Shown here: positions 1 through 37,218 of the stretch, in pieces
Position numbering within the stretch: position 1 is the first letter of the stretch
Layout of the letters: each line of letters starts with the position of its first letter
Source: a virus
Length of the DNA: 37,218 nt
IMG/VR virus record: IMGVR_UViG_3300020047_012036
Location: 1-37,218 of that record
Reading direction: 5' to 3' (one strand)
Position numbers and translations under genes: made by a program
Notes under the pieces: generated by a model
Seen by the model: only the letters and a program-made list of their open reading frames with translations
Databases searched by the model: none
Told to the model about the DNA's origin: nothing

Positions 1-121
1 TCGAGCCGGGATCGAGCATTTTCATATATTGGAAAATCATCGACATATCGCTCGCTCCGGAAGGCTGTTCCGAAGTTGCTGCGGCTTCGATTCCGGAATA
101 CGCCATCATTCTTTCGCGGGT
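1..121. repeat. Terminal direct repeat, identical to 37098-37218. Consistent with the overlap of a circular or terminally redundant genome of unit length 37097 bp.
   Basis: Base-by-base comparison of the first 121 nt (tcgagccgggatcgagc...ctttcgcgggt) with the last 121 nt shows identity. Confidence 0.95.
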
Positions 122-4151: not shown

Positions 4152-4153
4152 GT

Positions 4154-7169: not shown

Positions 7170-7201
7170 GCCCTAAACCTCAAAATATTCAAAAACTCAA
7201 A

Positions 7202-7672: not shown

Positions 7673-7696
7673 AATTTTATCTCCTGATGTTTTTAA

Positions 7697-7719
7697 GCCG
7701 GGTTGCCCCGGCCGTTTTT
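7697..7719. terminator. GC-rich stem-loop between the capsid and decoration genes.
   Basis: GCCGGG ttgc CCCGGC. The T5 run follows only on the plus strand. On the coding (minus) strand the hairpin lacks a U tract, so it may be an attenuator or stability element rather than a full terminator. Confidence 0.4.
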
Positions 7720-7729
7720 GGTTTCACAA

Positions 7730-8656: not shown

Positions 8657-8669
8657 CTTAAACCCCTTT

Positions 8670-9587: not shown

Positions 9588-9622
9588 AGAATTCACCTCA
9601 AAAATTAAAAATCAAAATGTTA

Positions 9623-9934
9623 TTAGCGAGTTTGCGGACCTGCCGGCATAGCTCCACTTCCGCCCGCTTCCATGGGTGCGGTATTGGTAGCTTGAGCAGG
9701 CTGTTGGCCGCCCTGGCCACCCATCGCTGAAACCACACCCTCAAATCCCTTCAGAACAGTTTCCATCTGCTGCTTAACCCCGGGGTCGATCCCTTGAGCC
9801 TTAGCGACCACGGTCATTAAAACATTGAGGCCATCGTAAAGGTTGGAAACAAGACTACCAAGGTCGCCCCCTTGTTCCTGTCCTTCGTCTTCCGCCATCT
9901 GTCCCTGATCCCCTTGAGCTGGTGTCTGTTCCAT
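9623..9934 (-). CDS. Small acidic Gly/Gln-rich protein, 103 aa.
   Basis: ATG at 9934 preceded by TAGGGGGA. Lies between portal and scaffold. Confidence 0.55.
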   Translation of the reverse strand: MEQTPAQGDQGQMAEDEGQEQGGDLGSLVSNLYDGLNVLMTVVAKAQGIDPGVKQQMETVLKGFEGVVSAMGGQGGQQPAQATNTAPMEAGGSGAMPAGPQTR

Positions 9935-9942
9935 AAATCCCC

Positions 9943-11774: not shown

Positions 11775-12110
11775 TTAAACCTCATTCCATCGGCGGGCGC
11801 ATTTTTCTTCGATTTGCTTTTCGCTGGATGCGTGAAGCTTGTTCGGATCCTCATTGCCTATTTCTTCGACACCGTATTTTCGCATGAGTTCCTTTTTGTG
11901 TCGATTACTCTTAACAATTTGGCCAAAGGCGGGGGAATATTCAGCCTTGTTCCAATCGTCTGCGCCGTAAAAATGGAAAGTCCGGGCGATGGTTCGCTTT
12001 GTGTCCGCTGATTTACAACTTGCGCAGTTCTCTGGGTTGTCAATTTCTGCAATTCTTTTCGTAACCTCAAATTCATGACCGCACGCAATGCAGATATAGG
12101 GGTAGATCAA
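11775..12110 (-). CDS. FmdB/CxxC zinc-ribbon family protein, 111 aa.
   Basis: YPYICIACGHEFEV...CASCKS matches the CxxC...CxxC zinc ribbon signature. TTG start at 12110 overlaps the terL stop (TTGA). Confidence 0.6.
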   Translation of the reverse strand: MIYPYICIACGHEFEVTKRIAEIDNPENCASCKSADTKRTIARTFHFYGADDWNKAEYSPAFGQIVKSNRHKKELMRKYGVEEIGNEDPNKLHASSEKQIEEKCARRWNEV

Positions 12111-13426
12111 GCGCTAAACCTCTCGGAAAACTGGTCTCCTCGACCGATTCTTCTTCTCTTTTGTGCTCTGCGGATTGGATCGCTGGTTTCTCCCGGGATT
12201 ATAACCGAGCGTCTCGGCCCGTCAACCATGCATTCCATAATCGTTATATATCGGTTGGTGTCCATGGCGTGGTCATTAACTTTGACCGGGTTCTTTTCCT
12301 TAATGTCTTTGTCTACCTTCATTTCGTCGGGGGCCGGGTAATGGTAGCTTTCGTACTCATCGACCGTGTGGGGGCTGGTCCCCGCGAAGATCTTATACCG
12401 CCCGGATTTGATCAACTGATAATGGCGGTCGATCCCCGCCTCAATGGTGTTATCAGCCGCCATAGCCCTAAGCCCTGCTTTGTTGAGCTCAAGAATTAAG
12501 GCGATGGCCGAGGGGTCGCACCAGAAATATTCGATGCCCCATATTTTCGCCTTGGCCTTGGCGATGTCGACCATTTCGGTAATTCTTAAGCCGCTCTTAT
12601 AATGCTCTGACACCTGGTAATGCTCGCCGTTGGGCAGGATGGCTCTGACGGTCAGGACAAATGGGTTGGTGGTACCGAAGTCAATGCCCCCCACAAACCT
12701 GGTCCGCTCTGGGAGAGTAAACGGCGCAACCAGGCAGTCGTCATTCCAGCAGTCATAGACAAGGCCGTCCATTTTGTCGAATTCCCCACCGAACATCATC
12801 TTGAACCGACGGGGGTCCATGGTGCGCTTGCGTTTTTCGTATGCGTGTCGATTAAAATATAGGTTTTCGAGGCTGGTGGCTTGAAATATCCGGGCTTCTG
12901 GTAATGCCGATGGGTCGCGGCGCTTTGGCTTAATGAGATCTTTCCACACCCAATTCAAGGAATAGGGCGAGGTAACAAGGAATATGGGGGCGTCAAGAAA
13001 CCCCGCCCGACCTTGGATGTTTTCCCAGAAATAAAGGCTGTAAAGCCCAGCCTCATCCCCCAGGATCGCTCGGACGTTTGTCATACCAACTATGGAATCG
13101 GGTTTAGTGCCGGTACGAAACCATACCTTGCCCCCATTGTAAATCTGAAAATACATGTCCCCGGGATGGAATTTCCCCAGGCCTTCCATAGCCCGGAGAA
13201 ATGGGGGGAGGGTTGATTGTTGCAGAATCGGGTAGGTTGGACTTGTAATGATGAAATTATCATCAGGTGAGCGATACTTATGGCACTGCATTTTCAGCCA
13301 GAGCGATCCGACTGTTGTTTTCCCCCACTGGATCCCGGTGGCACACAGGACAAGCTTGACCTCGGGATTATCCTCGGTAGCAAAAAGAGCTTCTTCCTGC
13401 TTTGTCGAATGGGGGGTAAATAGCAT
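12107..13426 (-). CDS. terL: Terminase large subunit, 439 aa.
   Basis: Walker A-like GIQWGKTT, Walker B ILGDEAG, and C-terminal nuclease acidic motifs GGIDFGTTNPF and VNDHAMDTNRY. Confidence 0.9.
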   Translation of the reverse strand: MLFTPHSTKQEEALFATEDNPEVKLVLCATGIQWGKTTVGSLWLKMQCHKYRSPDDNFIITSPTYPILQQSTLPPFLRAMEGLGKFHPGDMYFQIYNGGKVWFRTGTKPDSIVGMTNVRAILGDEAGLYSLYFWENIQGRAGFLDAPIFLVTSPYSLNWVWKDLIKPKRRDPSALPEARIFQATSLENLYFNRHAYEKRKRTMDPRRFKMMFGGEFDKMDGLVYDCWNDDCLVAPFTLPERTRFVGGIDFGTTNPFVLTVRAILPNGEHYQVSEHYKSGLRITEMVDIAKAKAKIWGIEYFWCDPSAIALILELNKAGLRAMAADNTIEAGIDRHYQLIKSGRYKIFAGTSPHTVDEYESYHYPAPDEMKVDKDIKEKNPVKVNDHAMDTNRYITIMECMVDGPRRSVIIPGETSDPIRRAQKRRRIGRGDQFSERFSA

Positions 13427-14337
13427 CAGGCTCCGAAGTGTTCGGTTGTTAAAAACTCGCCGTCAGCAAGTTCCCTTGCCTTCATTATAAGACTGTCATT
13501 GATATCTGAGTCAAGGGGTTGGACCTTGTTATACACTTTTTGCCGACTGCGGACGACTTTAACCTCCCCATCGATGTTGGCAAAGCCTCGCTTATGATCC
13601 TCGACAAACTCAATATCACCATAGTCCACCGAGTAAACGTAATCACCCGCCTCAATCTTAGTGACCATGGCCATAAATATATCTGACGGCACGCTATGGG
13701 GCCAGTCCGGGGAGGTTCGCTGGGCGCTCGATGGGCGAAAGTGCTTTTCCACGTAATCTATGCCGTAGAGGGCTGCGTTGACGGCCAACTCCTCATCCTC
13801 GGTATGGTCTGACAGCCCGATCTTAAGGTAGGGGAACTGCTGTTTGAGAATTAGAATATTCGTCAGGTCATATTGGGTTTTGTCAGCCGGATAGCATGGG
13901 ATGCAATATAGCAACCCGTCGCCGTCGACAGCCCCCAACTTGTTCGCTTTCACGATCCGCTCAATCTCATCAATACCGGATCCTCCCGTTGAAATGATGC
14001 GGGGTATTTTGCGCGGGAAATTGAACACCATATTGTTTTCAGCCGAGGCCACCTTGTAAAAATCGACGTGACGGGAAACGAGGTCAACCCCCTCCTGGGA
14101 AAAGGCAGAAATACCGAACATCAACCCCTCATCCTGGGCCGCTTGCCGCAGCTTAGGGATCCATGCCCCGTTCAGCAGCCGGTCGCTACTGCCCCGGCCA
14201 TATAGCTCGACCTCATTGAAAAACTGGAACTTGACGGCATCGGCCCCAGCCTGCGCTGCCTCGGTAATTGCGAGTAAGGCTGAGCTGAAGGAATCGATGT
14301 TGCTGCCGATTTCGGCAATAAAAATAGGCCTTTTCAT
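13426..14337 (-). CDS. NeuB/PseI/LegI-family nonulosonic acid synthase, 303 aa.
   Basis: IAEIGSNIDSFSSALLAITEAAQAGADAVKFQFF, YKVASAENN, IISTGGSGIDEIERIV and YCIPCYPA...IGLSDHT align with NeuB-family hallmark segments. The stop shares one base with the terL ATG. Confidence 0.8.
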   Translation of the reverse strand: MKRPIFIAEIGSNIDSFSSALLAITEAAQAGADAVKFQFFNEVELYGRGSSDRLLNGAWIPKLRQAAQDEGLMFGISAFSQEGVDLVSRHVDFYKVASAENNMVFNFPRKIPRIISTGGSGIDEIERIVKANKLGAVDGDGLLYCIPCYPADKTQYDLTNILILKQQFPYLKIGLSDHTEDEELAVNAALYGIDYVEKHFRPSSAQRTSPDWPHSVPSDIFMAMVTKIEAGDYVYSVDYGDIEFVEDHKRGFANIDGEVKVVRSRQKVYNKVQPLDSDINDSLIMKARELADGEFLTTEHFGA

Positions 14338-14366
14338 TGACTAAACTCCAAATAATAATTTCTGAT

Positions 14367-17024: not shown

Positions 17025-17052
17025 TCAAAATTATTCCGGCACCATAAAATCT
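17025..17052. repeat. 28 bp direct repeat, copy 1 of 2 (one mismatch against 17551-17578).
   Basis: tcaaaattattccggcaccataaaatct compared with tcataattattccggcaccataaaatct. A 24 nt core is identical. Confidence 0.9.
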
Positions 17053-17055
17053 GAT

Positions 17056-17258
<203 letters not shown>

Positions 17259-17271
<13 letters not shown>

Positions 17272-17540
17272 ACAGGAACCCCCTCAATCGATTTCCGTGC
17301 CGCATCAGTCACATCGAGAATCTCAATCGCTTGCAATAACTCGACCCGATCGACCATACATGGAAATTTGCAATTGCTAGGGTCCTTGGTTCCCTCCATT
17401 GCAAGCTGACTCAAGCTAGCCGCACCAGACCAATACCAAATACGCCGCGCTTTTCTTAACACAACCTCTTGACCGTTTCGTGATTCTAACTCGCCTGCAA
17501 ACACACCCGCTGAAAACGTCCGCACAAGCACATACTTCAT
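17259..17540 (-). CDS. Conserved phage hypothetical protein, 93 aa.
   Basis: ATG at 17540 (MKYVLVRTFSAGVFAGELESRNG...) preceded by AAAGGGA. The sequence resembles a widespread small phage protein family of unknown function as I recall it; I could not confirm the family name. Confidence 0.6.
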
Positions 17541-22071: not shown

Positions 22072-22270
22072 ATTTTTCGTTGCTCCTGTGATAGGTTTTC
22101 GGGCCGTTTATCGGCTCGAAGTTTGCGCGAAACCAGTCATCTGCAACTATTATACATCGGGTTGATAGGGGGCAGGGGTCCATAAGCGCCCAAGTCCCAT
22201 CGGAAAGCCTTTCGGCCTCCCAATATTGGAATTTTGCTTTGAAAATGGTGGGATTTTTATTATCCCTCAC
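22049..22270 (-). CDS. Hypothetical protein, 73 aa.
   Basis: ATGA-type overlap with the upstream large gene at 22267-22270. Confidence 0.5.
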   Translation of the reverse strand: MRDNKNPTIFKAKFQYWEAERLSDGTWALMDPCPLSTRCIIVADDWFRANFEPINGPKTYHRSNEKYGPFVEN

Positions 22271-24294
22271 TGATCAAGCCGATCAACAAAAAGGCGCATT
22301 TCATCAATGATAATTGGAGTTAACTCAATCAGTTTGGTCAGATTTATCACGCCGCCATCAGTCAAAAGCGGGGATAACTGAGCCCTGAGAATTTCCGACT
22401 GCTCGATACGTCGTTTGCATTCCTCTACCGGCAGAATCACCCGGGCGCAAAACTTGTTGATGTCAGCGTCGATCCTGAGGTCATCTGTGACCACGTTAAT
22501 GGGGTCATCCTCGACAAGGCTCACGCCAATTTCGCCCCATTTTTTCGAGACTTTGTTGTTGTCGTTTTTGAAGACCGTTTCATTGATGTCGTTTGTTTTA
22601 AAAAATATCTCGACCAACTCCCGGTCGCGGGCATCGAGCGCCCCAACTGTTACGCCGTTCCGCCCGGGGCCGCCTGGTTTGTCGCTGCCGCATTTGATGA
22701 CGTGACCGAATTCGTTATAGCATTTGTTGGGGTCCCGCTGGTTTTCGCAGGTAATGCCGTTACCCCAACGGTCCCGACATACCCCGGGCTGGTCCACTGG
22801 AGTCACGACAACCGGATCGGGGCATTTTATCTCGCGGCGGTAATCGTCGTAGCATTTGTTGGGGTCCACCGTCACTTCGCAGGACCGCCCAATGCAAATC
22901 GGTTTTCGTCCGGTGCCTGCCGGTGCGAATGCAGTTTCTAAGCTTTGGGCCTTAAGAAAAGAAAACCCCGCACTATTCCTGACCGCGTCTTTTGCAGCTA
23001 TAATCCCTTCATTATGGCACCGGGAACACTCACGGGCATTCCTGACGGTGGGGTCAAGTCTTTTGCCAGCCGCTTTAGTGTTGACCACAACGTCAAGGGG
23101 GGCAAAATCCTGCCGCACACCCTGATTATTGAACAAAGCGTAAACAAAAAACCCGTTTTTCTGCTGGCATATCCATTCGCTAGCCGAGGAAAAAAAAACT
23201 CGCTGGCTGCCGGTTTGGGGTGTTAGGGGAAATAGGGTCACATCGGTGGCCGGGTTATTTAGGTCATTGACTGAGTTGTCGTAAGTCACCCAACAAAAAC
23301 CCTCATCCCCCTCCAGCCGCTCAATTAGGCGATCCTTGTCCTCCGGGGAAATTTCCGATTGTTGAACCCCGATAAGGTGTGCCTCGAATTCGTCGTAGTT
23401 TTCCTGATGGTCGACTTCCACTAGGTTTAAAAAGCCGTTCAGATTATTGGGGATGCGCTTTAGCTTCGAGTAAACCGGATCCGAATGGGACACGTTCAAA
23501 AAATTGTCAAGATGGATCCAAGGCCGTCGCGCCCCGGTCAGGGCCTTGATAGTTTCCCCCTTGGTGGTTTTGCTTTCGAATTTGAAGGGGTCGGCGTTTA
23601 CCACCACCTCCCAGTCGTCTTTTGTCAAGTCGAGGTCGCCTAATTCAAGCGCGTAAACCCCGCCCCCAATGGCGATGGGGGAAAACAGCTCGCGGTCGTT
23701 TGAGATTTGATTGAGGCCTTTACCGGCAGCCCCGGCCACGGCCTTTATCGGAACTTCAGTGGCGGCATTATTAATGTGGTTGGTACCAATTAAAAACCGG
23801 GTGTTCACCCGGCCATCTTTGTCCTGCTGCTCCAAAAATTGAAGCATTATCGTTTCGATGTCATCGAAGGTAAAGTACCCACCCTCCCCCGATCCGGTGC
23901 CGTTGCAGGTTTTTCTAAATCCTTCGTTAACCCAAGTTTGAAAAGCTTGCTTGTCGGTTTCGTTCAAAAACAGGCCGCTGTTTTGGGGGGGCATTACTGA
24001 GCCGCTGGCCCCAAAAATCCGCCTGATCCCGTTTTTACCGCCTTTTTCCACTGGCTGGAGGAAATTTACCGCCCCATCGTACTGAGCCATGGCGCTGTGG
24101 CACCCGGCGCAGTTTTTGTCCACCAAGGGCTTGATGGTTTTATCCCACGCCACTTGATTTTCGCATAGGTCGGGTTGAACTGGCCCGTCAGGGCCTCCAT
24201 TTTCGATGATGGTGGTCTTTTCGGTCTTACCCCCACAGGATACCGCCCCCCAAACCATTAACACGCTCAGAATCGCTAAAATCGCCTTTCTCAT
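22267..24294 (-). CDS. Large secreted lipoprotein with two CxxCH motifs (cytochrome c-like, PSCyt-type N-terminal domain) and a Cys-rich tandem repeat, about 675 aa.
   Basis: MRKAILAILSVLMVWGAVSCGG lipobox. NCAGCHS...SVMPP...FQTWVNEG resembles my recollection of the planctomycete cytochrome C domain. A second ECSRCHNEG is present. Repeats DPNKCYDDYRREIKC and DPNKCYNEFGHVIKC. Alternative start: ATG at 24360, forming an ATGA overlap with the HNH stop. Confidence 0.6.
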   Translation of the reverse strand: MRKAILAILSVLMVWGAVSCGGKTEKTTIIENGGPDGPVQPDLCENQVAWDKTIKPLVDKNCAGCHSAMAQYDGAVNFLQPVEKGGKNGIRRIFGASGSVMPPQNSGLFLNETDKQAFQTWVNEGFRKTCNGTGSGEGGYFTFDDIETIMLQFLEQQDKDGRVNTRFLIGTNHINNAATEVPIKAVAGAAGKGLNQISNDRELFSPIAIGGGVYALELGDLDLTKDDWEVVVNADPFKFESKTTKGETIKALTGARRPWIHLDNFLNVSHSDPVYSKLKRIPNNLNGFLNLVEVDHQENYDEFEAHLIGVQQSEISPEDKDRLIERLEGDEGFCWVTYDNSVNDLNNPATDVTLFPLTPQTGSQRVFFSSASEWICQQKNGFFVYALFNNQGVRQDFAPLDVVVNTKAAGKRLDPTVRNARECSRCHNEGIIAAKDAVRNSAGFSFLKAQSLETAFAPAGTGRKPICIGRSCEVTVDPNKCYDDYRREIKCPDPVVVTPVDQPGVCRDRWGNGITCENQRDPNKCYNEFGHVIKCGSDKPGGPGRNGVTVGALDARDRELVEIFFKTNDINETVFKNDNNKVSKKWGEIGVSLVEDDPINVVTDDLRIDADINKFCARVILPVEECKRRIEQSEILRAQLSPLLTDGGVINLTKLIELTPIIIDEMRLFVDRLDQ

Positions 24295-24356
24295 AATTTG
24301 CCGCCCCTTTCGTATGCCTTGCGCCGCATCGTTAAAACTCCAGATTTGTGTTTGGG

Positions 24357-24758
24357 TCATTTTCGTTTCTTTTTTTCTTTTAGGCAATCCTTTTTCCCCC
24401 AGTTCCTTTTGTATGAATCTTCGAGCATCCTTATGCGCTTACTCAATTCCTTAGCCTCCTTTTTTGCATTTTGAATTTTAACCAAAACCTCCGACTTTTT
24501 CTGCTCATCAAGGACAATTAAGTCTTCGATGTATTTTCTTGCAAATACCACCCCCTGCGACCTTTGAAGTCGGTAGATTCGCGCCGACATCCCATAAGGA
24601 ACCGCAATCAGATTTGAAATCTCGTTATTTGTCTTGACCCCATCAATATGGTGAACAATCCAACCCGACTTGATCGGGCCATATGCCTCCTCGTAAACAA
24701 CTCGGTGCAAGTATTTTCCATCATCAAGCCAGTATCCGTTCTCCGCCATTCTGAGCAT
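24357..24758 (-). CDS. HNH homing-type endonuclease, 133 aa.
   Basis: Strong SD AAGGAGAGCT before the ATG. WIVHHIDGVKTNNEISNLIAV matches the HNH_3 pattern. Lys-rich C-terminus. Confidence 0.8.
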   Translation of the reverse strand: MLRMAENGYWLDDGKYLHRVVYEEAYGPIKSGWIVHHIDGVKTNNEISNLIAVPYGMSARIYRLQRSQGVVFARKYIEDLIVLDEQKKSEVLVKIQNAKKEAKELSKRIRMLEDSYKRNWGKKDCLKEKKKRK

Positions 24759-25563: not shown

Positions 25564-26241
25564 TTATATCCCCAAAATGTCCACAGAGTTGGTTCTCTCA
25601 AAATTCTTAAAGAAATCGCGGGTGGCGGTCAGATCCATTCGGACCATAAAACTGGTTGTGGAAATATTCCCTTTGGAGTTGACCCCGATCACAGTCCGGG
25701 ATCCCCGTTGAAACGCGGGCCCCCCGGAATCACCGAAGCAAAGGGCCGCCCCGTTCCGGGTAACAAAGTCAAAATTGGAAAATCCGATTACCCGGCTGAC
25801 GCCCTGGCGCAGGATCCCATCATTGCCACCGCCCCCACCGGGCTGGGTGCAACCAAAACCGGTCAAATCGACAAGCTGAAGCGGTCTAACCGCACCCCCG
25901 ATGGTAGCTGGGGGGATATTGATTGGGGCGGCTAGAAGACCCAAAGCGACGTCGTGGTCACGTCCAGGGAAAAGGGGGCTGCGGGTTACGGTCGCCCGAT
26001 GGACCACCCCATTGGAGCGAAACGCCACAACTTGCCCGTTGTTTGCGCAGTGGGCTGCCGTGACGATGACTCGAGGCCCTACGATGGTAGCCGTGCAAGC
26101 CGAGCGGGTTGTCAGGTTAACGATCCGCACCACCTGAGGGATATTGACCGGGCTCCCATTGATCAGGTCCAAATCGCTGGAGGATTCTGGCGTCCCGCAG
26201 GCGAAAAATAGTAACGACGACAAAAGAAATAGAAAGCGCAT
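25564..26241 (-). CDS. Trypsin-like (S1 family) serine protease lipoprotein, 225 aa.
   Basis: Signal peptide with lipobox LLFFAC. Catalytic motifs TAAHC, DHDVAL and GDSGGP. Confidence 0.85.
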   Translation of the reverse strand: MRFLFLLSSLLFFACGTPESSSDLDLINGSPVNIPQVVRIVNLTTRSACTATIVGPRVIVTAAHCANNGQVVAFRSNGVVHRATVTRSPLFPGRDHDVALGLLAAPINIPPATIGGAVRPLQLVDLTGFGCTQPGGGGGNDGILRQGVSRVIGFSNFDFVTRNGAALCFGDSGGPAFQRGSRTVIGVNSKGNISTTSFMVRMDLTATRDFFKNFERTNSVDILGI

Positions 26242-27793: not shown

Positions 27794-28282
27794 TTATGCC
27801 TGATTTGGCTCAAAAAATAAAGCCAATTCCTTTTTTCGCCGACTGACAAGGCCGTTACAAGTCACCTTGGTTTTAATGCCGTCTTTTAAAACGGTTATCT
27901 TGTTCCACATTTTCCACGCGGTCGTAATGGCAAGCCTATCCCATTCGGCTTTCGCCAGTTCTTTGCGGATGGTTGACTTTGTGAAGCCTTCCACTCCATT
28001 CCCAATATTATAAATCAATAGGATCAACGCGCACCATTGGCCCTCATTTAACCGAAGAGCTAAAGCTGGCTCAATTTTTTGGACGTATTTAACTATTTTT
28101 TGGACCCGCTTAAAAAGCTTCGCATCGGCATCCTTGACGGTGATCGTCGCCCCCTCGTAGCAACCCTCGGTCTCACCCCATCCGTAAGTCCATTTTCCAG
28201 CCGGGCATTTATAAGCGGTCGTTTTGCAAACGCCAGATTCCTCGATTTCCTTAATTTTATTTAAGACTTTTTCCGTTATCAC
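27794..28282 (-). CDS. Endolysin, GH24 lysozyme family, 162 aa.
   Basis: E-x8-C-x5-T arrangement in EESGVCKTTAYKCPAGKWTYGWG, plus LLIYNIGNG and NGLVSRRKKELALF. GTG start preceded by GGAGG. Confidence 0.85.
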   Translation of the reverse strand: MITEKVLNKIKEIEESGVCKTTAYKCPAGKWTYGWGETEGCYEGATITVKDADAKLFKRVQKIVKYVQKIEPALALRLNEGQWCALILLIYNIGNGVEGFTKSTIRKELAKAEWDRLAITTAWKMWNKITVLKDGIKTKVTCNGLVSRRKKELALFFEPNQA

Positions 28283-28720: not shown

Positions 28721-28964
28721 TTTCTTCCCTTTCATTTGCATAGGCCCAAGCGTCATCGTGATATTTGGGAGTTTTGCGGGTTTTTGGAATTTCTACCAAT
28801 CGTCCGCGATTGATCTCATAACCGTCACTTACCATATTTATGGGTTCGCTTGGCGTTGTCAATAGGTCAGGGACGCGCTCAAGAAAAACCCAAAGCGCAA
28901 TTGACTGAACGACTGCGCAGATGACCAAAGCCACAAAGATTCCTAAAAGGAGAATGTCCGTCAC
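28713..28964 (-). CDS. Single-pass membrane protein, 83 aa; holin or spanin candidate.
   Basis: GTG at 28964 preceded by GGAGGA at 6 nt, and overlapping the GNAT stop (GTGA). TM segment ILLLGIFVALVICAVVQSIALWVFL. Confidence 0.5.
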   Translation of the reverse strand: MTDILLLGIFVALVICAVVQSIALWVFLERVPDLLTTPSEPINMVSDGYEINRGRLVEIPKTRKTPKYHDDAWAYANEREENG

Positions 28965-29506
28965 GGTGTTTCCTCCCGTCGGCACCAGTCTTTTTTTGCC
29001 CATTCTGATTCGAGGATTGACCAAATTTCGGAGGAAACCATTTTCCCAGCTTTGAAATAGCTTTCGCGCAACCGTCCCTCAAACTCAAAACCAAGTGCAC
29101 CATAAAGCCCTGCTGCTGGATTTCCCATGATGGTCTCACCCCAAATGCGATTAAGCCCGAGGTTGGCGAAGCCGTGGCAAATTAGGGTCTGCAGTGCGGT
29201 TTTTCCGAGACCTTTGCCCATGTGACCGGGCTCGACGTAAATCGAAAACTCTGCCTTGCGGTTATGCTGATCAATATCAGTCAGGCCGCAAACGCCTACC
29301 GTTTTGTCCCCTGAAATTACCGAATACATGGAAATGGCTGGATCGCGGACGATCTTGTCATGCCAGGCGACTTGATTGCCCGGGGCGATAAGGTCGTATT
29401 GGCGGCACCATCGGCGGATCGTGTACTTGTTCCGCCAGCCCATAAGTTCGCGGCCCTGAAGGGGGTCGACTGGTCCGAGTTTGACGCCGAAGCCAAAGTC
29501 AATCAT
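28961..29506 (-). CDS. GNAT-family N-acetyltransferase, 181 aa (PseH/RimL-like).
   Basis: The WRNK...RRW N-terminal region and the acetyl-CoA binding segment VEPGHMGKGLGKTALQTLICHGF...LGF. Confidence 0.75.
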   Translation of the reverse strand: MIDFGFGVKLGPVDPLQGRELMGWRNKYTIRRWCRQYDLIAPGNQVAWHDKIVRDPAISMYSVISGDKTVGVCGLTDIDQHNRKAEFSIYVEPGHMGKGLGKTALQTLICHGFANLGLNRIWGETIMGNPAAGLYGALGFEFEGRLRESYFKAGKMVSSEIWSILESEWAKKDWCRREETP

Positions 29507-29509
29507 AAT

Positions 29510-29767
29510 TTAAGAACCCCATTCTTTGTCTTTATAAATCGCGTCAATCACTGTTTTTTGAATTTCATTTAGGGCTTTGATCAGCGCCATGCATTGATCC
29601 TTTGTCAAAATGCCAAGGTTAACTCTGCCCGTTAACCGATCTTTTATCGTATACAAAGTGATCAAGCTTTTTATCTCATCGGTATCTAATGAATTAATCG
29701 AATCAATTGAGTCATCGATTTCTTCTTTAAACCTTTCATTGTCACTATATTGCGTAATTTCACTCAT
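29510..29767 (-). CDS. Hypothetical acidic protein, 85 aa.
   Basis: ATG at 29767; 8 nt overlap with the upstream gene. Confidence 0.5.
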   Translation of the reverse strand: MSEITQYSDNERFKEEIDDSIDSINSLDTDEIKSLITLYTIKDRLTGRVNLGILTKDQCMALIKALNEIQKTVIDAIYKDKEWGS

Positions 29768-30017
29768 TTATAATTCTTTCGTTTTTCAAGATTTTTTGCA
29801 TGATGCAAACAACATCATAGGCTGTGATTTTCTCGCCGATTCCATACCCTGTCAGTTCGCGACAAGCGTGATCGGCGCGCTTGTAAGTTTCATTCGCTGC
29901 CGCTTCGCCATCGGTTCTAGCTTTATGGGCGTCCTCAATTCTGCCTTTGACAAACTCGACAGCCGCGGCCAATCCGTTGATTTTTACCTCGTTTTCAACA
30001 ACTTTTAACTCAGTCAT
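29760..30017 (-). CDS. Hypothetical protein, 85 aa.
   Basis: The ATG at 30017 (MTELKVVENE) overlaps the aminotransferase stop by 8 nt. The longer track ORF to 30188 would lie inside the aminotransferase gene. Confidence 0.5.
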   Translation of the reverse strand: MTELKVVENEVKINGLAAAVEFVKGRIEDAHKARTDGEAAANETYKRADHACRELTGYGIGEKITAYDVVCIMQKILKNERIINE

Positions 30018-31173
30018 TTTTTCTAACCCTTTCCGCAAACGGAGATTGTGGTAAATCGCCTCGTAAAGATATTTCAGATCGGTTAACCCTATGAACGATG
30101 TCACCGATGACGCTAATAACATGGTCGGTATCCCCTGGGTGAGCGTAGTTAAAAAACCACGAGGGGCCAAATAAAATTCCCGCCTCACAAGCTTCCTGGA
30201 AAAGCAGGGCTTTAGTCAATGGATCGCCTTCGAAAATCCCCCGTGTGGGGTATCCTTTTATCTTTACATTGATGGGAAATTCATTAAAGAAGTCGATAAA
30301 TCTTTGACCGTGCTCCCAAAGGTCGGAAATCTTATGGCGGCGCATGAATTCTGCTGTTTTTAGCCACCCCAATAGGGCGCTGGTTTCAGCCGCAAAGGTA
30401 CTGCTCACAAAATACCCAGGGTTGTCCATGATGTTTTTCTTGCCGCCCACAACTGACAGGGGGTATCCCCCGCCTAAAGCCTTTCCGAGGCAAACTATGT
30501 CAGGGCAAATTCCCCAATGTTTCGCTACCGAATGGCCATCGAAGCGCAAGCCGGTTATGACCTCATCGAAAATGAGGACCACGGCGTGCTTATCGCATTT
30601 TTCCCGAAGCCGCAAAAGCCATTCACGACGTCCCTGTCCCCAGTCTGCGATTACAGGCTCGACAATTATGGCTGCAGGTATCTCGCCGCTTTCCCAGCCA
30701 TCCTCGAGTTTTTTAATCCATGGCCGCGGCCCCGGGATGCCTGCGGCGGGGGTTGTTAACGAAACGAAGTCATCGCTATGCCCGTGATAACCCTCTGACA
30801 GGATCAAGCTACGGCCGGTATGGGCCCGGGCAATTTTGATGGCCGCGGCGCAAGCCTGGGTGCCGGTCTTAAGAAATTTTAGCTTTTCGATAAAAGGGAA
30901 AAAGTCGATAACCTTTTCCGCCGCTTCTGCCTCGATTAGCGTGGGAAAGCTGGAATTGATGGCCGGGAGCTGCAGAATTTGCCCGGTCAGGTTTGCCCCA
31001 AGCCCGCAGATGTAATCGATATATGTCTGGCCGAGAGCATCGACCAGCTTGTTTCCCACTTGTTTTTGAAAAACTTTGGGATACACCCCGCCAATATGGG
31101 ATCTTGGGTGTTTACTGTTTGTCAGGCATCCTTGCGCGATAACTTTTTGATATCGATTCCAATAATCAGACAT
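30010..31173 (-). CDS. Class III (glutamate-1-semialdehyde aminomutase-like) PLP aminotransferase, 387 aa.
   Basis: Overall length and the segments YIDYICGLGANLTG, SEGYHGHSDDF and LIFDEVITGLRF are typical of the Aminotran_3 family. ATG at 31173 preceded by TTATTATTTGGAGTTAAG; the track start at 31188 is TTG. Confidence 0.75.
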   Translation of the reverse strand: MSDYWNRYQKVIAQGCLTNSKHPRSHIGGVYPKVFQKQVGNKLVDALGQTYIDYICGLGANLTGQILQLPAINSSFPTLIEAEAAEKVIDFFPFIEKLKFLKTGTQACAAAIKIARAHTGRSLILSEGYHGHSDDFVSLTTPAAGIPGPRPWIKKLEDGWESGEIPAAIIVEPVIADWGQGRREWLLRLREKCDKHAVVLIFDEVITGLRFDGHSVAKHWGICPDIVCLGKALGGGYPLSVVGGKKNIMDNPGYFVSSTFAAETSALLGWLKTAEFMRRHKISDLWEHGQRFIDFFNEFPINVKIKGYPTRGIFEGDPLTKALLFQEACEAGILFGPSWFFNYAHPGDTDHVISVIGDIVHRVNRSEISLRGDLPQSPFAERVRKND

Positions 31174-31203
31174 AAAACTTAACTCCAAATAATAAAATAC
31201 AAA

Positions 31204-31917
31204 TTACAAACGCCAAATAAGCCGCTTTTTCATTCCATAAGCTGACTGCAGCTTTGTTTTCAGCGATTCCACCTGCCCCTTAACGCGCTCCAGGTCGCCC
31301 ATTGTGTCGACTGACAGCTTAATTTGTGACCGATCGACAAAGCCTATGATATGGCCGATCTTAGCCCAACCCGGGGGCTGCTGCCTGAAAAGGATCGTCA
31401 CATGCTCCCGCTGCTCTTTGGTTTTTGCGTTGTCGTTCAACCAAGACAGAGCTTCAATTGATAAAACTTCGCAATCCCAGCCGTCAATTTCTGTCCTGAA
31501 TTTTTCATCAACATTCGAAACGTAATCAGCGTCATAATCTTTCGCACACTTGATATGCTTAACCACGACGAACGGGGGAAGTAAGGGGCAATCCCCGGTT
31601 AATCGCACCACAAAATCGTAGTCATCTGTTTGGGATGCCTCCCAAAAACGCGCCAAAACGTCATGCTCATCACCTTCAAAAACAGGTATTAGGTTCGAAA
31701 AGTGAGTCTTTAACGGATCGCCGTCAGGAACTAAAAGCATCACTCTGATATCGATCTGCTCACCTTTGGAGCGCCCCATATATTCCCGAACATTGAGCGC
31801 TGTATTTATCACATGCTCAACAACAGGCTTCCCGTCAAGTTCGGCCATTGATTTATTTGGGAACCGCTGGCTACTGCTCCTCGCTTGGATGCCAATCAGT
31901 ACCTTTTTTGTTTTCAT
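31204..31917 (-). CDS. Cytidylyltransferase, 237 aa, of the SpsF/NeuA (CTP_transf_3) type.
   Basis: IGIQARSSSQRFPNKSMAELDGKPVVEHVI matches the N-terminal nucleotide-binding signature of acylneuraminate/SpsF cytidylyltransferases. ATGA overlap with the upstream gene. Confidence 0.75.
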   Translation of the reverse strand: MKTKKVLIGIQARSSSQRFPNKSMAELDGKPVVEHVINTALNVREYMGRSKGEQIDIRVMLLVPDGDPLKTHFSNLIPVFEGDEHDVLARFWEASQTDDYDFVVRLTGDCPLLPPFVVVKHIKCAKDYDADYVSNVDEKFRTEIDGWDCEVLSIEALSWLNDNAKTKEQREHVTILFRQQPPGWAKIGHIIGFVDRSQIKLSVDTMGDLERVKGQVESLKTKLQSAYGMKKRLIWRL

Positions 31918-32555
31918 ATTTCACCTTCGAGATACGAGTGAACTTTTCGATGGGAATTCGCGATGTATTCTAATTCCGCTTTCCAGTCGAAAGAATTAGG
32001 GATAAACGCTGCGTTCAAAAACCGCTTAATGTTTTCTATATACGCATAATCCATCATATCAGGGAAAACCGTTGATCCATTAATTTTGCAACCCCAAATA
32101 GGGCTTTTATTCGACAGCCTGATTATGCCTGAGCTCAGTCCAATGATGTTAATGCAGTCCCAAATAAGACCATCGGCGCCCGATTTGAAATAATCATATG
32201 ACGTTACACCTTCTTTATTAAATTTCCCTAGGTGTCGATACTGATTAATCATCATCAATTTGAAGGGACTTGATCCGAATTTTGATACCAAAAGTTCGAT
32301 CGCGGCTTTGCTTTTAGTGATTGGCTTTTCTGCTAACAAGGGGACGTCCGCGGCGGTTTCAAGATGGCCTAAAATCGTATCGTAATGGTTAAAGGTAGGG
32401 GTTGCGTCGATGACCGCCCCGAAATGGCCGTGGGCTGGCTTAGGGCCGCCCTGCTTAACGTCAAATCCGACCCACTTTACTTCGAGGAAATTAAGGATTG
32501 AGGCATAACGCTGCCCCATGTTCCCCAGGTGGCCTAGCAATAAAACTTCGCTCAT
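31914..32555 (-). CDS. Gfo/Idh/MocA-like oxidoreductase, 213 aa (short).
   Basis: N-terminal dinucleotide-binding-like LLLGHLGNMGQRY and the family EKP motif in LLAEKPI. ATGA overlap with the dehydratase stop. Confidence 0.6.
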   Translation of the reverse strand: MSEVLLLGHLGNMGQRYASILNFLEVKWVGFDVKQGGPKPAHGHFGAVIDATPTFNHYDTILGHLETAADVPLLAEKPITKSKAAIELLVSKFGSSPFKLMMINQYRHLGKFNKEGVTSYDYFKSGADGLIWDCINIIGLSSGIIRLSNKSPIWGCKINGSTVFPDMMDYAYIENIKRFLNAAFIPNSFDWKAELEYIANSHRKVHSYLEGEI

Positions 32556-33448
32556 GGATTGGCCTCCACCAATTTTCTGACAAGTGGCTCAAGCTTTAAA
32601 ATTAATTCATCGTGAGTAAATCGCTCAGAAACAAGGCTTGATTTTAATGGGGTGAGATTTTCGTGCAACTTTTCCCCCACTCCGATACCAACAACCTCAT
32701 AGTGCCAGTTTTTGACGCCTAGGATGGTCGCAATGGCCGACGCCACGTCCAAAACAGGGGCCGACCTATAGTCTGGGATGAATTCCCCGACGTAACCGCG
32801 CACCGTATCGATGCTATCGTGGGCCTTTACTTTTCCAATAAGGAATGACACGGCATCCTCAATATTGAGCCAAAATCTCGTCATTCTAGGGTCTGTGATT
32901 GCGACCCTAGCGGTTGATCTTAGGCTCTCGACAAAAATAGGGATAACCGAACCACGGCTACCCATGATGTTTCCCCATCGAAAGTGCATAAGCTTCATTT
33001 TGCTTTGACCGGCCACAAATTCTCGCAGGGACTTTTCAGCGATGGCCTTGGTCATGCCGTAAATATTAATCGGCAAAACAGCCTTATCAGTAGTGGAAAA
33101 AATGAACCTGTCAGTATAACCCGACCTAATGGCCGAGCGCATTACGTTAGCCGTACCCTCGACGTTAGTTCGGATAGCCTCCAGAGGCTGGTTTTCGCAA
33201 ACGTCCACATGCTTCATTGCTGCAAAGTGGTAAACGTGATCGTAGTCGTGGCGCAGAAAAACATCGTCAACTGCCACTCTGTCGCGGATATCGCAAACAA
33301 TAGTTTTGATGTTCGGGAACTGCTTCTTTAGTTGTTTTTGCTTGATCTCATCGCGGGAAATTACGGTGATTTTTGCAGATTTATAAGCCTGCCTGACAAA
33401 TTCAGTTCCTAGCGTGCCGGTTCCACCGACAACTAAATAATCGTCCAT
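32552..33448 (-). CDS. PseB/FlaA1/CapD-family UDP-GlcNAc 4,6-dehydratase, 298 aa.
   Basis: Segment-by-segment match to my recollection of Helicobacter FlaA1: GGTGTLG, SRDEIKQ, CDIRD, AAMKHVDVCENQPLEAIRTNVEGT, STDKAVLPINIYGMTKAIAEK (YxxxK), RWGNIMGSRGSVIPIF, ITDPRMTRFW, GEKLHE. Confidence 0.85.
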   Translation of the reverse strand: MDDYLVVGGTGTLGTEFVRQAYKSAKITVISRDEIKQKQLKKQFPNIKTIVCDIRDRVAVDDVFLRHDYDHVYHFAAMKHVDVCENQPLEAIRTNVEGTANVMRSAIRSGYTDRFIFSTTDKAVLPINIYGMTKAIAEKSLREFVAGQSKMKLMHFRWGNIMGSRGSVIPIFVESLRSTARVAITDPRMTRFWLNIEDAVSFLIGKVKAHDSIDTVRGYVGEFIPDYRSAPVLDVASAIATILGVKNWHYEVVGIGVGEKLHENLTPLKSSLVSERFTHDELILKLEPLVRKLVEANP

Positions 33449-33466
33449 GCCCTAAACTCCAAATAA

Positions 33467-33745
33467 TTATCGCTTGTTGCGATACAGAAATAAATTTTCC
33501 GTGCTAATTGGTTCAATTCTAATAACTGCTGAACCTTTGGTCAAGTCATTGATAAACTGAGATAAATCCTCGGAAGGGTTTTTTTGAATGGCCTCAAGTT
33601 TTTCAAGGCGATCTTGGGCGCGGTCGCGCTCGCCCATCAAATTGACGATTTCGCGCTTGTAAAGAAAATTGCCCTTTAACTCGTGGATGTAAGCTAAAGC
33701 GAAAAAGAAGGATGAAATACCTAAAATAACAAAAGAAACTTCCAT
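33467..33745 (-). CDS. Membrane-anchored coiled-coil protein, 92 aa.
   Basis: ATG at 33745 (MEVSFVILGISSFFFALAY) preceded by ATTATTTGGAGTTTATTTT. Confidence 0.5.
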   Translation of the reverse strand: MEVSFVILGISSFFFALAYIHELKGNFLYKREIVNLMGERDRAQDRLEKLEAIQKNPSEDLSQFINDLTKGSAVIRIEPISTENLFLYRNKR

Positions 33746-33799
33746 AAAATAAACTCCAAATAATTTAATACAGATCATGCCTCATTTCTTTCGATATTG

Positions 33800-34645
33800 T
33801 CACGCAATTCTGATAGCCGACATCGTTGTGGAGCTGCTATTAGTAGCGGATCCCGCACTAAATACCAAGGTCTCGTTGAGGTAATAAGTCGTAGTGGTTC
33901 CGACAATAATAACCCTGAAAATCTGTGGGTAATAGTCGGCGCCGCCAGGAAGCGCAAATCTTTTCTCATTTTGGTGCGCGGAACTGGATGACGATATAGA
34001 TACCAAGAGTGCTGTTGATGTTAGCCCAGAGTTCGCGATAATTGGATCGCCGTAAACAAGCCAAATCCCGGCAGTCAATGAAATGCTGCATACATTTTTT
34101 AAAGTGTTAGTTGAAAAGGACGCCCCGCTATTCTGGATGGTGCCATTTATAATTTCGCCGACGTAACCAGCCGCAACGGAGTTGCCCGAGGAGTCTCCTT
34201 TGTAAAGGTTTGACCATACCATATAGGTTCCGTCGCTTGTCAGTAGTTGACCAGCGGTTCCTGCAGCTACCGGCAAATAGAGGGAAATATCCCCAGCCGT
34301 TGTTGGATGCGCCATCAATTTGGTTGTTAAAGCCCCGGCGCTCGACACGCCGAGATATAAAGCCCTAAGACCGATATCAGCCGAACCAACATCATAGGTC
34401 TGATTTGTCTTTGGTATGAGGTTTGAAGCTAGGGACGCGGTGACAGTCAAATCGTCTGATGTTGCGTTCCCGAGGTTAACGTTTCCATTGGCGGTTAACG
34501 TTCCCGCCAAAGTGCCCGCATTGATTGAAATATCCTTGGTCCCATCCGACAGGCCATTGATGATGTCGGTGAAGTTTTGGTTTACCTGGGTTGCATCGGC
34601 GGTTGTCCCGTTGGAAAACGTATAGGTAACTGAAGTATAGGCCAT
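33800..34645 (-). CDS. Tail fibre protein, 281 aa.
   Basis: N-terminus YTFSNGTTADATQVNQNFTDIINGL is typical of phage tail fibres. Ser/Thr/Gly/Ala-rich beta-type remainder. GAGGT SD. Confidence 0.8.
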   Translation of the reverse strand: MAYTSVTYTFSNGTTADATQVNQNFTDIINGLSDGTKDISINAGTLAGTLTANGNVNLGNATSDDLTVTASLASNLIPKTNQTYDVGSADIGLRALYLGVSSAGALTTKLMAHPTTAGDISLYLPVAAGTAGQLLTSDGTYMVWSNLYKGDSSGNSVAAGYVGEIINGTIQNSGASFSTNTLKNVCSISLTAGIWLVYGDPIIANSGLTSTALLVSISSSSSAHQNEKRFALPGGADYYPQIFRVIIVGTTTTYYLNETLVFSAGSATNSSSTTMSAIRIA

Positions 34646-36694: not shown

Positions 36695-37218
36695 CACATC
36701 CCCTTTAGATAAAGATCGATATCTTTGTCTGAAAATTGAGCGGGTGCGGCTTGCGCCTTATCCTCAAACGGCAGGCTAGGCGACCTTGGTTGACCCTTCA
36801 AAACCATCCCGTTTTTTCCTTTTTGGAAAAGCTGGTAAGCCTCTTGGTAAGTTGGATCAATAACCATCGAAGTGTCTTTGATGCCAAATTTTTTCGCGTC
36901 CTGCTCATATCGCTGATCGACTCGCTTTTGCAATTCAAGTTGGGCGGTCAAAAGAGATTTTGCCTCACGCATAAAATCTTGGCGTTGTTTTTGATCTAAC
37001 ATTTCCCCGGTCGTAACCATTTGGTTATATTTGTTCCAGACCCGTTGGGGGACGGTTCCGGTATTTTGTGCGTTGGCAAATTCACCCTCTCGCACGGTCG
37101 AGCCGGGATCGAGCATTTTCATATATTGGAAAATCATCGACATATCGCTCGCTCCGGAAGGCTGTTCCGAAGTTGCTGCGGCTTCGATTCCGGAATACGC
37201 CATCATTCTTTCGCGGGT
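36694..37218 (-). CDS. C-terminal part of the junction-spanning gene (see 1..619).
   Basis: ORF 36694..37206 is open to the window edge. Bases 37098-37218 duplicate 1-121. Contains FQYMKMLDPGSTVREGEF. Confidence 0.8.
   Translation of the reverse strand, partial: TRERMMAYSGIEAAATSEQPSGASDMSMIFQYMKMLDPGSTVREGEFANAQNTGTVPQRVWNKYNQMVTTGEMLDQKQRQDFMREAKSLLTAQLELQKRVDQRYEQDAKKFGIKDTSMVIDPTYQEAYQLFQKGKNGMVLKGQPRSPSLPFEDKAQAAPAQFSDKDIDLYLKGM
37098..37218. repeat. Terminal direct repeat, identical to 1-121.
   Basis: Direct comparison. Confidence 0.95.

Follow-up and report, generated by a model that had tools for sequence, protein, structure and literature searches.

Candidate genes for synthesis and transfer of a pseudaminic acid-type sugar in the late block of an uncultured phage clade

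Why would a phage with a 37-kb genome carry, among its structural and lysis genes, enzymes of the kind that bacteria use to build nonulosonic acids? Bacteria and archaea are known to decorate their surfaces with nonulosonic acids such as pseudaminic acid (Pse), and these sugars affect motility, immune recognition, and phage adsorption. IMG/VR virus record IMGVR_UViG_3300020047_012036, a stretch of 37,218 nucleotides (nt) that we analyzed as a whole and call the window, holds a cassette of five such enzyme genes at 28961-33448, as well as a distant synthase gene and a distant transferase gene (Table 1). We lean toward the view that this phage encodes its own late-expressed synthesis, activation, and transfer of a nonulosonic acid of the Pse type, which would serve to O-glycosylate a head protein.

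The evidence for this view starts with the enzymes themselves. Families were assigned with Pfam, NCBIfam, and PHROGs, and structures were compared with the PDB by profile and by Foldseek, using AlphaFold2 (AF2) models. An earlier note, made from the sequence alone, had described five co-oriented enzyme genes between the tail fibre and lysis genes. All five lie where it placed them, on the minus strand and flanked by a tail-fibre-like gene and an endolysin gene, and every family that it named, including those of the two distant genes, was upheld by Pfam, NCBIfam, and PDB/Foldseek comparisons. The ATGA links that it had reported among three of the genes are also visible in the sequence, as overlaps between the dehydratase and oxidoreductase genes and between the oxidoreductase and cytidylyltransferase genes.

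The dehydratase, likened in the earlier note to PseB/FlaA1, is a Polysacc_synt_2 protein whose best NCBIfam model is PseB (TIGR03589; 204.9 bits, cutoff 407.75); the model for LegB, of the legionaminic acid (Leg) pathway, scores only 32.6 bits. Its best PDB match is 2GN4, the Helicobacter pylori FlaA1/PseB enzyme, and the TDKA and YGxTK motifs coincide in the alignment (E 5e-45). For the GNAT acetyltransferase, the best NCBIfam model is PseH (TIGR03585) at 61.9 bits (cutoff 93.1), and the orthologue in a related locus, L121, reaches 78.1 bits. The cytidylyltransferase belongs to CTP_transf_3 and is nearer to the SpsF/KdsB type than to PseF, as evidenced by a score of only 19.9 bits against PseF (TIGR03584; cutoff 205.7) and by PDB matches led by 6OEW and then by KdsB entries. 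The aminotransferase is of class III and resembles glutamate-1-semialdehyde (GSA) aminomutases, which are its best models in NCBIfam and its best matches in the PDB, where C-6' sugar aminotransferases match too. Residues D208, E209, and K236 are invariant in the alignment of its family; drawing on what is known of GSA aminomutases, we take the surrounding regions to be the pyridoxal phosphate-binding segments FDEVITG and GKALGGG.

The fifth cassette enzyme is a short oxidoreductase of the Gfo/Idh/MocA type with no match of its own in Pfam, NCBIfam, or PHROGs. PF01408 is found in most of its 37 homologues, and their alignment shows a glycine-rich, GxxGxxG-like N terminus and an invariant E76-K77-P78, the EKP catalytic motif of the Gfo/Idh/MocA family. 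The AF2 model (predicted local distance difference test score [pLDDT], 94.4) matches myo-inositol dehydrogenase, the UDP-sugar 3-dehydrogenases WlbA/WbpB and GnnA, and KanD2/GenD2 in Foldseek, with TM-scores of ~0.7 when normalized by the query (TMq) and of only 0.45-0.5 when normalized by the 300- to 340-residue targets (TMt). The phage protein is ~100 residues shorter than these targets; no GFO_IDH_MocA_C match, and so no full C-terminal alpha/beta substrate/oligomerization domain, was found in its 213 residues.

Two further genes lie far from the cassette. First, the synthase scores similarly against the NCBIfam models for PseI (100.9 bits) and NeuB (104.6 bits), which it does not separate and both of which it meets below the cutoff. 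The PDB entry that it matches best is the pseudaminic acid synthase 8H2C (E 2.4e-17), and the AE, K.Q, SDH, and EKH motifs line up between the two. The window's protein has no detected SAF domain. In related loci L124, L130, and L133, the synthase gene is found inside the cassette, in the order PseB-NeuB-oxidoreductase-cytidylyltransferase-aminotransferase, and this arrangement ties the window's distant NeuB functionally to its cassette.

Second, the transferase is a putative Maf-type core that we call mini-Maf. Both its family profile and its AF2 model (pLDDT, 90.8) point to the Maf of Magnetospirillum magneticum AMB-1 (5MU5): this is the best PDB match by sequence, at the GSGPS nucleotide-sugar-binding region, in which G79, G81, P82, and S83 are invariant, and the top Foldseek match (E 5.4e-10), followed by the sialyltransferase ST8SiaIII and, in third place, the pterin enzyme HPPK (8SD5). 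Bacterial Maf proteins have 632-666 amino acids (aa), and the mini-Maf, at 339 aa, lacks the N- and C-terminal domains of the full-length architecture. The alignment to 5MU5 covers ~275 columns of the 632-residue target (TMt, 0.27), and among 1,631 homologues, the best 120 are mostly 336-340 aa long, at 53-73% identity besides the window's own copy (P0158, 100%). We conclude that the mini-Maf corresponds to the central catalytic core only. Similar MptE-like proteins in BFVD come from uncultured marine and freshwater phages, all of them functionally unannotated.

Both distant genes are embedded in the phage's structural program. Read along the minus strand, the head part of the late block consists of NeuB, TerL, portal, scaffold-like gene, major capsid protein (MCP), a 156-aa protein, mini-Maf, and head-tail genes, in that order; it is followed by tail genes, fibre, a small transmembrane (TM) protein, the sugar cassette, and lysis genes. 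The sugar genes and the transferase are thus all co-oriented inside the structural/late block. NeuB overlaps the start of TerL by one base, and the mini-Maf lies one gene downstream of the MCP, with the 156-aa gene on its capsid side and the head-tail genes on the other. Most related loci likewise have a homologue of the 156-aa protein in the gap from MCP to Maf.

This arrangement is not peculiar to one genome. Searches of IMG/VR with family alignments returned at least 165 contigs with a mini-Maf and at least 113 with the aminotransferase, and ~20 contig names are in both lists. Relatives of the aminotransferase number 2,620; the best 120 are 46-98% identical to it, mostly ~50%, and many lie on contigs of 33-40 kb. 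We surveyed loci by tblastn in two sets, one anchored on Maf and one on the aminotransferase, counting in each case the loci with enough flanking sequence. NeuB was upstream of TerL in 37 of 43 Maf-anchored loci, where the gap between MCP and Maf had a median of 553 nt (range, 501-1035). Among the aminotransferase-anchored loci, a cytidylyltransferase gene adjoined the aminotransferase gene without exception (43/43), and the oxidoreductase (38/42), the PseB-like enzyme (36/40), and the GNAT (31/35) were nearly as regular. In L001, L002, L006/L007, and L089, for instance, the tail genes are followed by PseB-like, oxidoreductase, CTP_transf_3, Aminotran_3, and GNAT genes, often near an integrase and helix-turn-helix (HTH) repressors, and L008 shows the head part of the plan, NeuB-TerL-portal-...-MCP-150 aa-MptE-like, with portal and adaptor domains of the SU10 type. 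Since the identical gene set recurs in the same order in dozens of independent contigs, its assembly is not due to chance. The clade consists of large numbers of uncultured, podophage-like, often temperate phages of 34-40 kb, and the sugar system is one of its core traits rather than the oddity of a single genome.

Cultured phages are remote from this clade. Their closest MCPs, from Ruegeria, Bradyrhizobium, Stenotrophomonas, and Myxococcus phages, are ~30% identical to the window's, and the closest cultured relative of TerL is ~27% identical. Across 50,697 GenBank phage records, the cassette had no near-identical DNA match; tblastn with the aminotransferase yielded only housekeeping HemL-type matches or contaminating bacterial contigs, tblastn with Maf yielded none, and a canonical NeuB query matched three records. 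When the alignment of the mini-oxidoreductase was searched against 185,579 species genomes, it matched two unrelated Gfo/Idh/MocA proteins and yielded neither a prophage copy nor a host. One contig considered as a host-flanked prophage, L090 (JGI Ga0613798_000080), is probably a concatemer: at 76,537 bp, it is about twice as long as L089 (37.9 kb), and the two have the same genes over the part that we read.

From these families, their catalytic motifs, the operon structure, and the clade-wide conservation and synteny, we infer an order of reactions, a sugar, and an acceptor. The PseB-like dehydratase would convert UDP-N-acetylglucosamine to a 4-keto-6-deoxy sugar, the class III aminotransferase would aminate C4 to give a 4-amino sugar, and the PseH-like GNAT would acetylate the new amine, yielding a 2,4-diacetamido sugar. 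After release of UDP, perhaps by a host activity or an unrecognised phage enzyme, the NeuB/PseI-like synthase would condense the free sugar with phosphoenolpyruvate, and the cytidylyltransferase would activate the product as a CMP-sugar. The mini-oxidoreductase may contribute optional tailoring. Finally, the mini-Maf would O-glycosylate a head protein, either the capsid protein or its 156-aa neighbor, during assembly. Among the specific models, those for PseB, PseH, and PseI score best, and this suggests a sugar of the Pse rather than the Leg type.

The least conventional step in this scheme is the amination, and here, a minimal relative is informative. In L121 (IMG/VR 3300033121_002132, 6414-9694), a cassette that we checked open reading frame (ORF) by ORF comprises only the PseB-like, cytidylyltransferase, aminotransferase, and GNAT genes; the same contig also carries a mini-Maf (as L026). 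A search by tblastn alone found no oxidoreductase in L107. Transamination requires a carbonyl, and N-acetylation requires an amine; in this minimal cassette, only the class III enzyme could form an amine, so we assign to it the amination at C4. Moreover, because the absence of the oxidoreductase from L121 leaves the PseB-like enzyme as the sole carbonyl-former, the aminotransferase would have to act on the PseB product. Since L121 keeps the rest of the cassette, the oxidoreductase is accessory and dispensable. GH109-type enzymes had suggested to us, by their analogy, that it might act as an NAD-dependent stand-in for PseG, and we have downgraded this idea: L121 does without the gene, and Legionella has an oxidoreductase as well as PseG. 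A formylating variant, L133, offers another view of the pathway. Here, the aminotransferase and GNAT genes have between them a gene for a sugar N-formyltransferase (9686-10234), matched best by the model for dTDP-4-amino-4,6-dideoxyglucose formyltransferase, and its position beside them fits a nucleotide-linked 4-amino-4,6-dideoxy intermediate. The L133 cassette is also interrupted by an N6/N4 DNA methylase gene (6624-7355).

The most serious competitor to this scheme concerns chemistry rather than target. In the window, the oxidoreductase, cytidylyltransferase, and class III aminotransferase genes form a contiguous triad (30010-32555), and the three enzymes may instead tailor a finished nonulosonate or its CMP ester by hydroxyl oxidation, transamination, and N-acylation. 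The product would then be a variant, e.g., one aminated at another carbon, rather than Pse5Ac7Ac, and it could go to either kind of acceptor. Four larger viral contigs (L157, L159, L162, and L163; 58-77 kb) speak for such coupling, as they encode a CTP_transf_3::Aminotran_3 fusion of 665-685 aa in the gene order full-length Gfo/Idh/MocA, fusion, PseB, DegT aminotransferase, and NeuB with SAF. In L157, PseB (426.8 bits) and PseI (394.9 bits) both exceed the NCBIfam equivalog cutoffs. These contigs represent a second, distinct type of viral nonulosonate cluster, without obvious Maf or PseG; methyltransferase genes lie upstream in L157 and L159.

The triad has bacterial counterparts too, and so, although uncharacterized, it is already on record in nonulosonic acid loci. 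Group I flagellin islands of Aeromonas read pseB-pseC-[aldo/keto reductase]-pseF-[class III aminotransferase]-pseG-(pseH)-pseI plus maf-1 (PMC7874193), and the Legionella pneumophila Sg6 lipopolysaccharide (LPS) locus reads GNAT-PseG-GSA-like aminotransferase-cytidylyltransferase, with an aldo/keto-type oxidoreductase, DegT, and CapD in addition (PMC3694923). The occurrence of the triad, with an aldo/keto reductase as its oxidoreductase, in Aeromonas and Legionella loci in which pseC is present too is consistent with a tailoring role, as are the fold matches of the phage oxidoreductase to dehydrogenases that feed aminotransferases (WlbA, GnnA, KanD2, and GenD2). The prophage protein EpaA, a cytidylyltransferase fused to a reductase, tailors Pse (PMC12053666). 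The ancestral role of the aminotransferase may therefore have been nonulosonate tailoring coupled to the oxidoreductase and the cytidylyltransferase. Nevertheless, L121 retains the aminotransferase and GNAT without the oxidoreductase, and if no enzyme aminated C4, the PseB product would need a reductase, of which none is evident. We thus regard tailoring as a somewhat unlikely account of what the triad does in this clade. Aminotransferases found by tblastn on plasmids were set aside as relatives, being only ~30% identical. One of these plasmid clusters belongs to a different system, in which NeuB is only 26% identical: L091, on Methylomagnum ishizawai plasmid NZ_AP019784.1 (6223-12668), encodes a glycosyltransferase-family protein, a split transketolase, a class III aminotransferase, a short-chain dehydrogenase/reductase, a short NeuB-family synthase (301 aa), and a HAD-IIIA hydrolase, and it looks like an uncharacterized ulosonic acid pathway unrelated to Pse.

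Several observations weigh against the view that the phage synthesizes a Pse-type sugar and places it on its own head. On paper, the pathway is incomplete: among the window ORFs tested, neither a PseG-type UDP-sugar hydrolase nor a DegT/PseC aminotransferase had a family match, and both are missing as well from the cassettes of L001, L002, L006, L089, and L121. The earlier note, which had remarked on the lack of a recognisable PseG, saw nearly every step of synthesis and transfer in this genome; synthesis, activation, and a Maf-type transferase are indeed encoded, less these two enzymes. All of the enzymes score below the NCBIfam equivalog cutoffs, and for this reason, the scores do not fix substrate and stereochemistry. 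Furthermore, the coexistence of the same aminotransferase type with DegT, both in bacteria and in the four larger viral contigs, suggests that its ancestral role was not PseC-like. Given this coexistence, the proposal that a class III enzyme serves instead of DegT/PseC would apply to this clade and would not describe a general property of the enzyme. The "extra" oxidoreductase is likewise present in the window, and the Aeromonas and Legionella triads show that it has precedents in such loci. Many relatives are temperate, with integrase and repressor genes, and the one hint of a host is a single "Pseudomonadota bacterium" metagenome-assembled genome among the NCBI names of relatives. Lastly, gene position is the sole line of evidence for an acceptor on the virion.

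On that last point, the earlier note had left two outcomes open, virion glycosylation and remodelling of the host surface, and both are still conjectural. In the second, the sugar would be placed on flagellin, pilin, S-layer, LPS, or capsule and would alter motility, mask receptors against superinfection, or bring about lysogenic conversion, which is possible given that many relatives are temperate; a tyrosine integrase and HTH repressors are encoded by L001 and L006, both close relatives. The one known role of Maf enzymes is flagellin glycosylation (PMC7874193), the prophage enzymes EpaAB modify Pse in the host capsule (PMC12053666), and viral pseI has been read as "motility augmentation" in the work cited in PMC6359870. 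Yet the sugar genes occupy the late packaging/head and tail-lysis blocks, an atypical place for morons, and NeuB is translationally coupled to TerL. The window ORFs tested include no integrase or repressor, and no flagellin or flagellar genes were found in the 37-kb genome. Some members of the clade are temperate, it seems, and others possibly lytic. The mini-Maf, moreover, has nothing beyond the catalytic core, and thus lacks the flagellin-recognition regions, and it is conserved in the manner of the capsid gene, always one gene away from it. This fixed position, the shared conservation, and the reduction to a core favor a head protein as the acceptor, the candidates being the Ser/Thr/Gly-rich 156-aa protein or, alternatively, the MCP itself. 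We therefore consider host-surface remodelling unlikely.

Could the phage genes add no new capability and simply raise flux through, or rely on, a host Pse or Leg pathway, from which PseG and perhaps PseC would come? The consistent lack of PseG and DegT in each clade member examined is what such a booster would predict, but six to seven enzymes and a dedicated transferase, kept at ~50% protein identity, exceed what boosting needs, and some PseG-less Aeromonas islands carry the same triad (PMC7874193); we find this explanation improbable. Weakest of all, and in our estimate highly improbable, is the proposal that the supposed mini-Maf is no glycosyltransferase at all, for instance a pterin diphosphokinase of the MptE type, or that the sugar goes on DNA: PF01973 is named after MptE and HPPK is among the Foldseek matches, but Maf leads by four to five orders of magnitude ahead of a CMP-sialic acid transferase, the protein co-occurs with NeuB and the cassette, and neither folate genes nor a base-hydroxymethylase or other base-modifying genes were seen among the ORFs tested, on which ground DNA glycosylation was rejected.

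A Pse-type sugar made by the phage for its own head is thus the reading that we carry forward. More tentatively, and with less confidence than in that general statement, we suggest that this lineage makes a sialic acid-like coat for its capsids by a DegT- and PseG-independent route, with class III amination at C4 and with a minimal Maf retargeted from flagellin to a head protein. The PseG-less Aeromonas islands with the same triad hint that a PseG-independent route may exist.

How new is such a system? In Campylobacter and Helicobacter, the canonical route to CMP-pseudaminic acid is PseB-C-H-G-I-F. The phage set resembles it in its nearest solved structures (PseB 2GN4 and PseI 8H2C), in a GNAT whose best model is PseH, and in a CTP_transf_3 enzyme for activation; it differs in having a class III aminotransferase in place of PseC, no PseG, an additional oxidoreductase, and scores below the equivalog cutoffs. 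The mini-Maf, in turn, shares with AMB-1 Maf the ties of structure and profile described above and departs from it in length, in domain content, and in being encoded beside a phage capsid gene. Precedents exist for glycosylated structural proteins and for virions that bear a nonulosonic acid: mycobacteriophage capsids and tails are glycosylated by phage glycosyltransferases, which are ordinary hexose transferases, and the spike of haloarchaeal virus HRPV-1 bears host-made 5-N-formyl-legionaminic acid. To our knowledge, neither mycobacteriophages nor HRPV-1 encode a nonulosonate pathway with a Maf-type transferase.

Among the closest known relatives of the system are the group I islands of Aeromonas, which have in common with it the triad, a GNAT of the PseH type, a synthase of the NeuB family, and a Maf-type transferase and, in subgroups ID and IE, the absence of PseG (PMC7874193). 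Unlike these islands, the phage system is viral, is split between the head block (NeuB and Maf) and the tail-lysis junction, and lacks DegT/PseC; where the islands have an aldo/keto reductase, it has a Gfo/Idh/MocA protein of 213 aa, the Maf is roughly half as long, and no flagellin gene is near. In Acinetobacter baumannii, a prophage encodes EpaA and EpaB, which epimerize host Pse at C8 for the host capsule (PMC12053666). These are phage-borne nonulosonic acid enzymes too, and CTP_transf_3 is again physically coupled to a tailoring enzyme; in contrast to the phage system, there is no synthase, dehydratase, or transferase, and the location is moron-like. In the Pacific Ocean Virome, pseI was listed as a viral auxiliary metabolic gene (AMG) (Hurwitz 2015, cited in PMC6359870); as cited there, it is a single gene at the protein-cluster level, with no pathway, Maf, lineage, or synteny described. 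A literature search that mostly lay outside subscription journals turned up no description of a phage Maf, of a complete phage nonulosonate pathway, or of virion glycosylation with a nonulosonate by phage enzymes. The suggestion of an undescribed system therefore stands insofar as nothing equivalent is found in the 50,697 GenBank phage records or in the papers searched, and it is qualified by the earlier records of the triad and of a lone viral pseI. The enzymology is of a known kind, that of flagellin glycosylation islands; what is new is the setting, namely, a small phage, a split between the head block and the tail-lysis junction, a minimal Maf, the lack of PseC and PseG, and conservation throughout a large uncultured clade.

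Some features of the window bear on expression and gene boundaries. The 12-mer TTATTTGGAGTT, with a GGAG ribosome-binding site inside it, is found in four exact copies on the minus strand, at 14344-14355, 31181-31192, 33455-33466, and 33752-33763, each directly upstream of a start codon: those of NeuB, the aminotransferase, the PseB-like enzyme, and the small TM ORF, respectively. With up to two mismatches, the window has 13 matches, against 4.8 expected. The motif could be a common translation signal of the sugar genes or merely the strongest Shine-Dalgarno context of the phage. For the aminotransferase, ATG 31173 (387 aa) is most likely the start, rather than TTG 31188 (392 aa), because the GGAG of TTATTTGGAGTT precedes it and because the 98%-identical protein P0001 also has 387 aa. 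Two 85-aa ORFs, not one, separate the aminotransferase from the GNAT. The first, sA, shares an 8-nt overlap, ATGACTGA, with the aminotransferase stop, and the second, sB, an 8-nt overlap, ATGAGTGA, with sA; sA has no similarity to the equivalently placed small ORFs of relatives, and sB is likewise not conserved. The small protein encoded between the tail fibre and PseB-like genes has an N-terminal TM helix and homologues in the same place in L001, L002, L006, and L089 (E 1e-5 to 1e-6), which share a conserved C-terminal motif (…ALVRVERI.P…FLRSPR). It could be a lysis/holin-type protein or a component of the sugar system.

As for the genome as a whole, the two ends of the window (1-121 and 37098-37218) are 100% identical over 121 nt, which indicates a closed circular genome of 37,097 bp, and entry P0158 shows the window to be an entire JGI metagenome contig. 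No tRNA genes were found in the window. The early/replication region encodes a trypsin-like serine protease (25564-26241; E 2.2e-15) and an HNH endonuclease (24357-24758) whose gene overlaps the start of the gene for a 706-aa protein (22267-24387); the latter protein has no significant family match, and its gene contains an imperfect 62-nt repeat (22690-22751 and 22822-22883). A 6/12-nt tandem repeat of GCCAGA/GCCATC/GCCATA spans 17035-17304, and an ORF within it on the minus strand (17056-17271) encodes 71 aa, nearly all Gly-Ser/Tyr/Asp dipeptides (MDEVNCGSGSGSGSGYGYGDGDG...). Any relation of this Ser-rich peptide to glycosylation is pure speculation.

Table 1. Positions of features in the window and, in the last four rows, in the larger viral contigs that are named.
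Feature	Position	Strand	Length (aa)	Basis or remark
Internal-virion-protein-like gene	1614-3509			PHROGs/Pfam
Adaptor-like gene	3510-4157			PHROGs/Pfam
Mini-Maf, MptE-like/Maf-type CMP-nonulosonate transferase core (putative)	6150-7169	minus	339	PF01973, E 9e-22, 78.1 bits, cutoff 34.6
Ser/Thr/Gly-rich protein, candidate acceptor	7202-7672	minus	156	Between MCP and mini-Maf; no family match
Major capsid protein (MCP)	7730-8656	minus		phrog_9953 major head protein, E 1.6e-57
Portal	9943-11772	minus		PHROGs/Pfam
TerL	12107-13426	minus		PHROGs/Pfam
NeuB/PseI-like nonulosonate synthase	13426-14337	minus	303	NeuB, E 1.2e-32, 113.7 bits, above Pfam threshold; first gene of packaging/head operon
Endolysin	27794-28282			PHROGs/Pfam; flanks sugar cassette
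PseH-like GNAT N-acetyltransferase	28961-29506	minus	181	Acetyltransf_1/3
Small ORF sB	29510-29767	minus	85	No family match
Small ORF sA	29760-30017	minus	85	Translationally coupled filler
GSA-aminomutase-like class III (fold type I) aminotransferase	30010-31173 (listed to 31188)	minus		Aminotran_3, E 1.4e-31
SpsF/KdsB-type cytidylyltransferase, putative CMP-nonulosonate synthetase	31204-31917	minus	237	CTP_transf_3, E 7.7e-15, 55.7 bits
Mini Gfo/Idh/MocA NAD(P) oxidoreductase	31914-32555	minus	213	Homologues, EKP motif, fold
PseB-like UDP-GlcNAc 4,6-dehydratase	32552-33448	minus	298	Polysacc_synt_2, E 7.6e-67; first enzyme of cassette
Small single-TM protein	33467-33745	minus		Directly upstream of PseB-like gene; cassette membership uncertain
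Tail-fibre-like gene	33800-34645			Flanks sugar cassette
CTP_transf_3::Aminotran_3 fusion, L157	7212-9236			
CTP_transf_3::Aminotran_3 fusion, L159	7206-9203			
CTP_transf_3::Aminotran_3 fusion, L162	7188-9245			
CTP_transf_3::Aminotran_3 fusion, L163	7086-9113			

If the proposed route is correct, phages of this clade would sialylate their own particles, with consequences for virion stability, adhesion to mucus and particles, evasion of grazers and immunity, and host recognition. This would be the first phage-encoded system for glycosylation of virions with nonulosonic acid and a new, short route to such sugars. A minimal Maf of 339 aa with an acceptor other than flagellin would make Maf recognition and mechanism, which are still poorly understood, testable, and the compact enzyme set would lend itself to dissecting the Aeromonas/Legionella triad and the PseG-independent step. 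Also, the viral "pseI AMGs" of aquatic viromes would then be reread as parts of virion modification systems and not as motility boosters.

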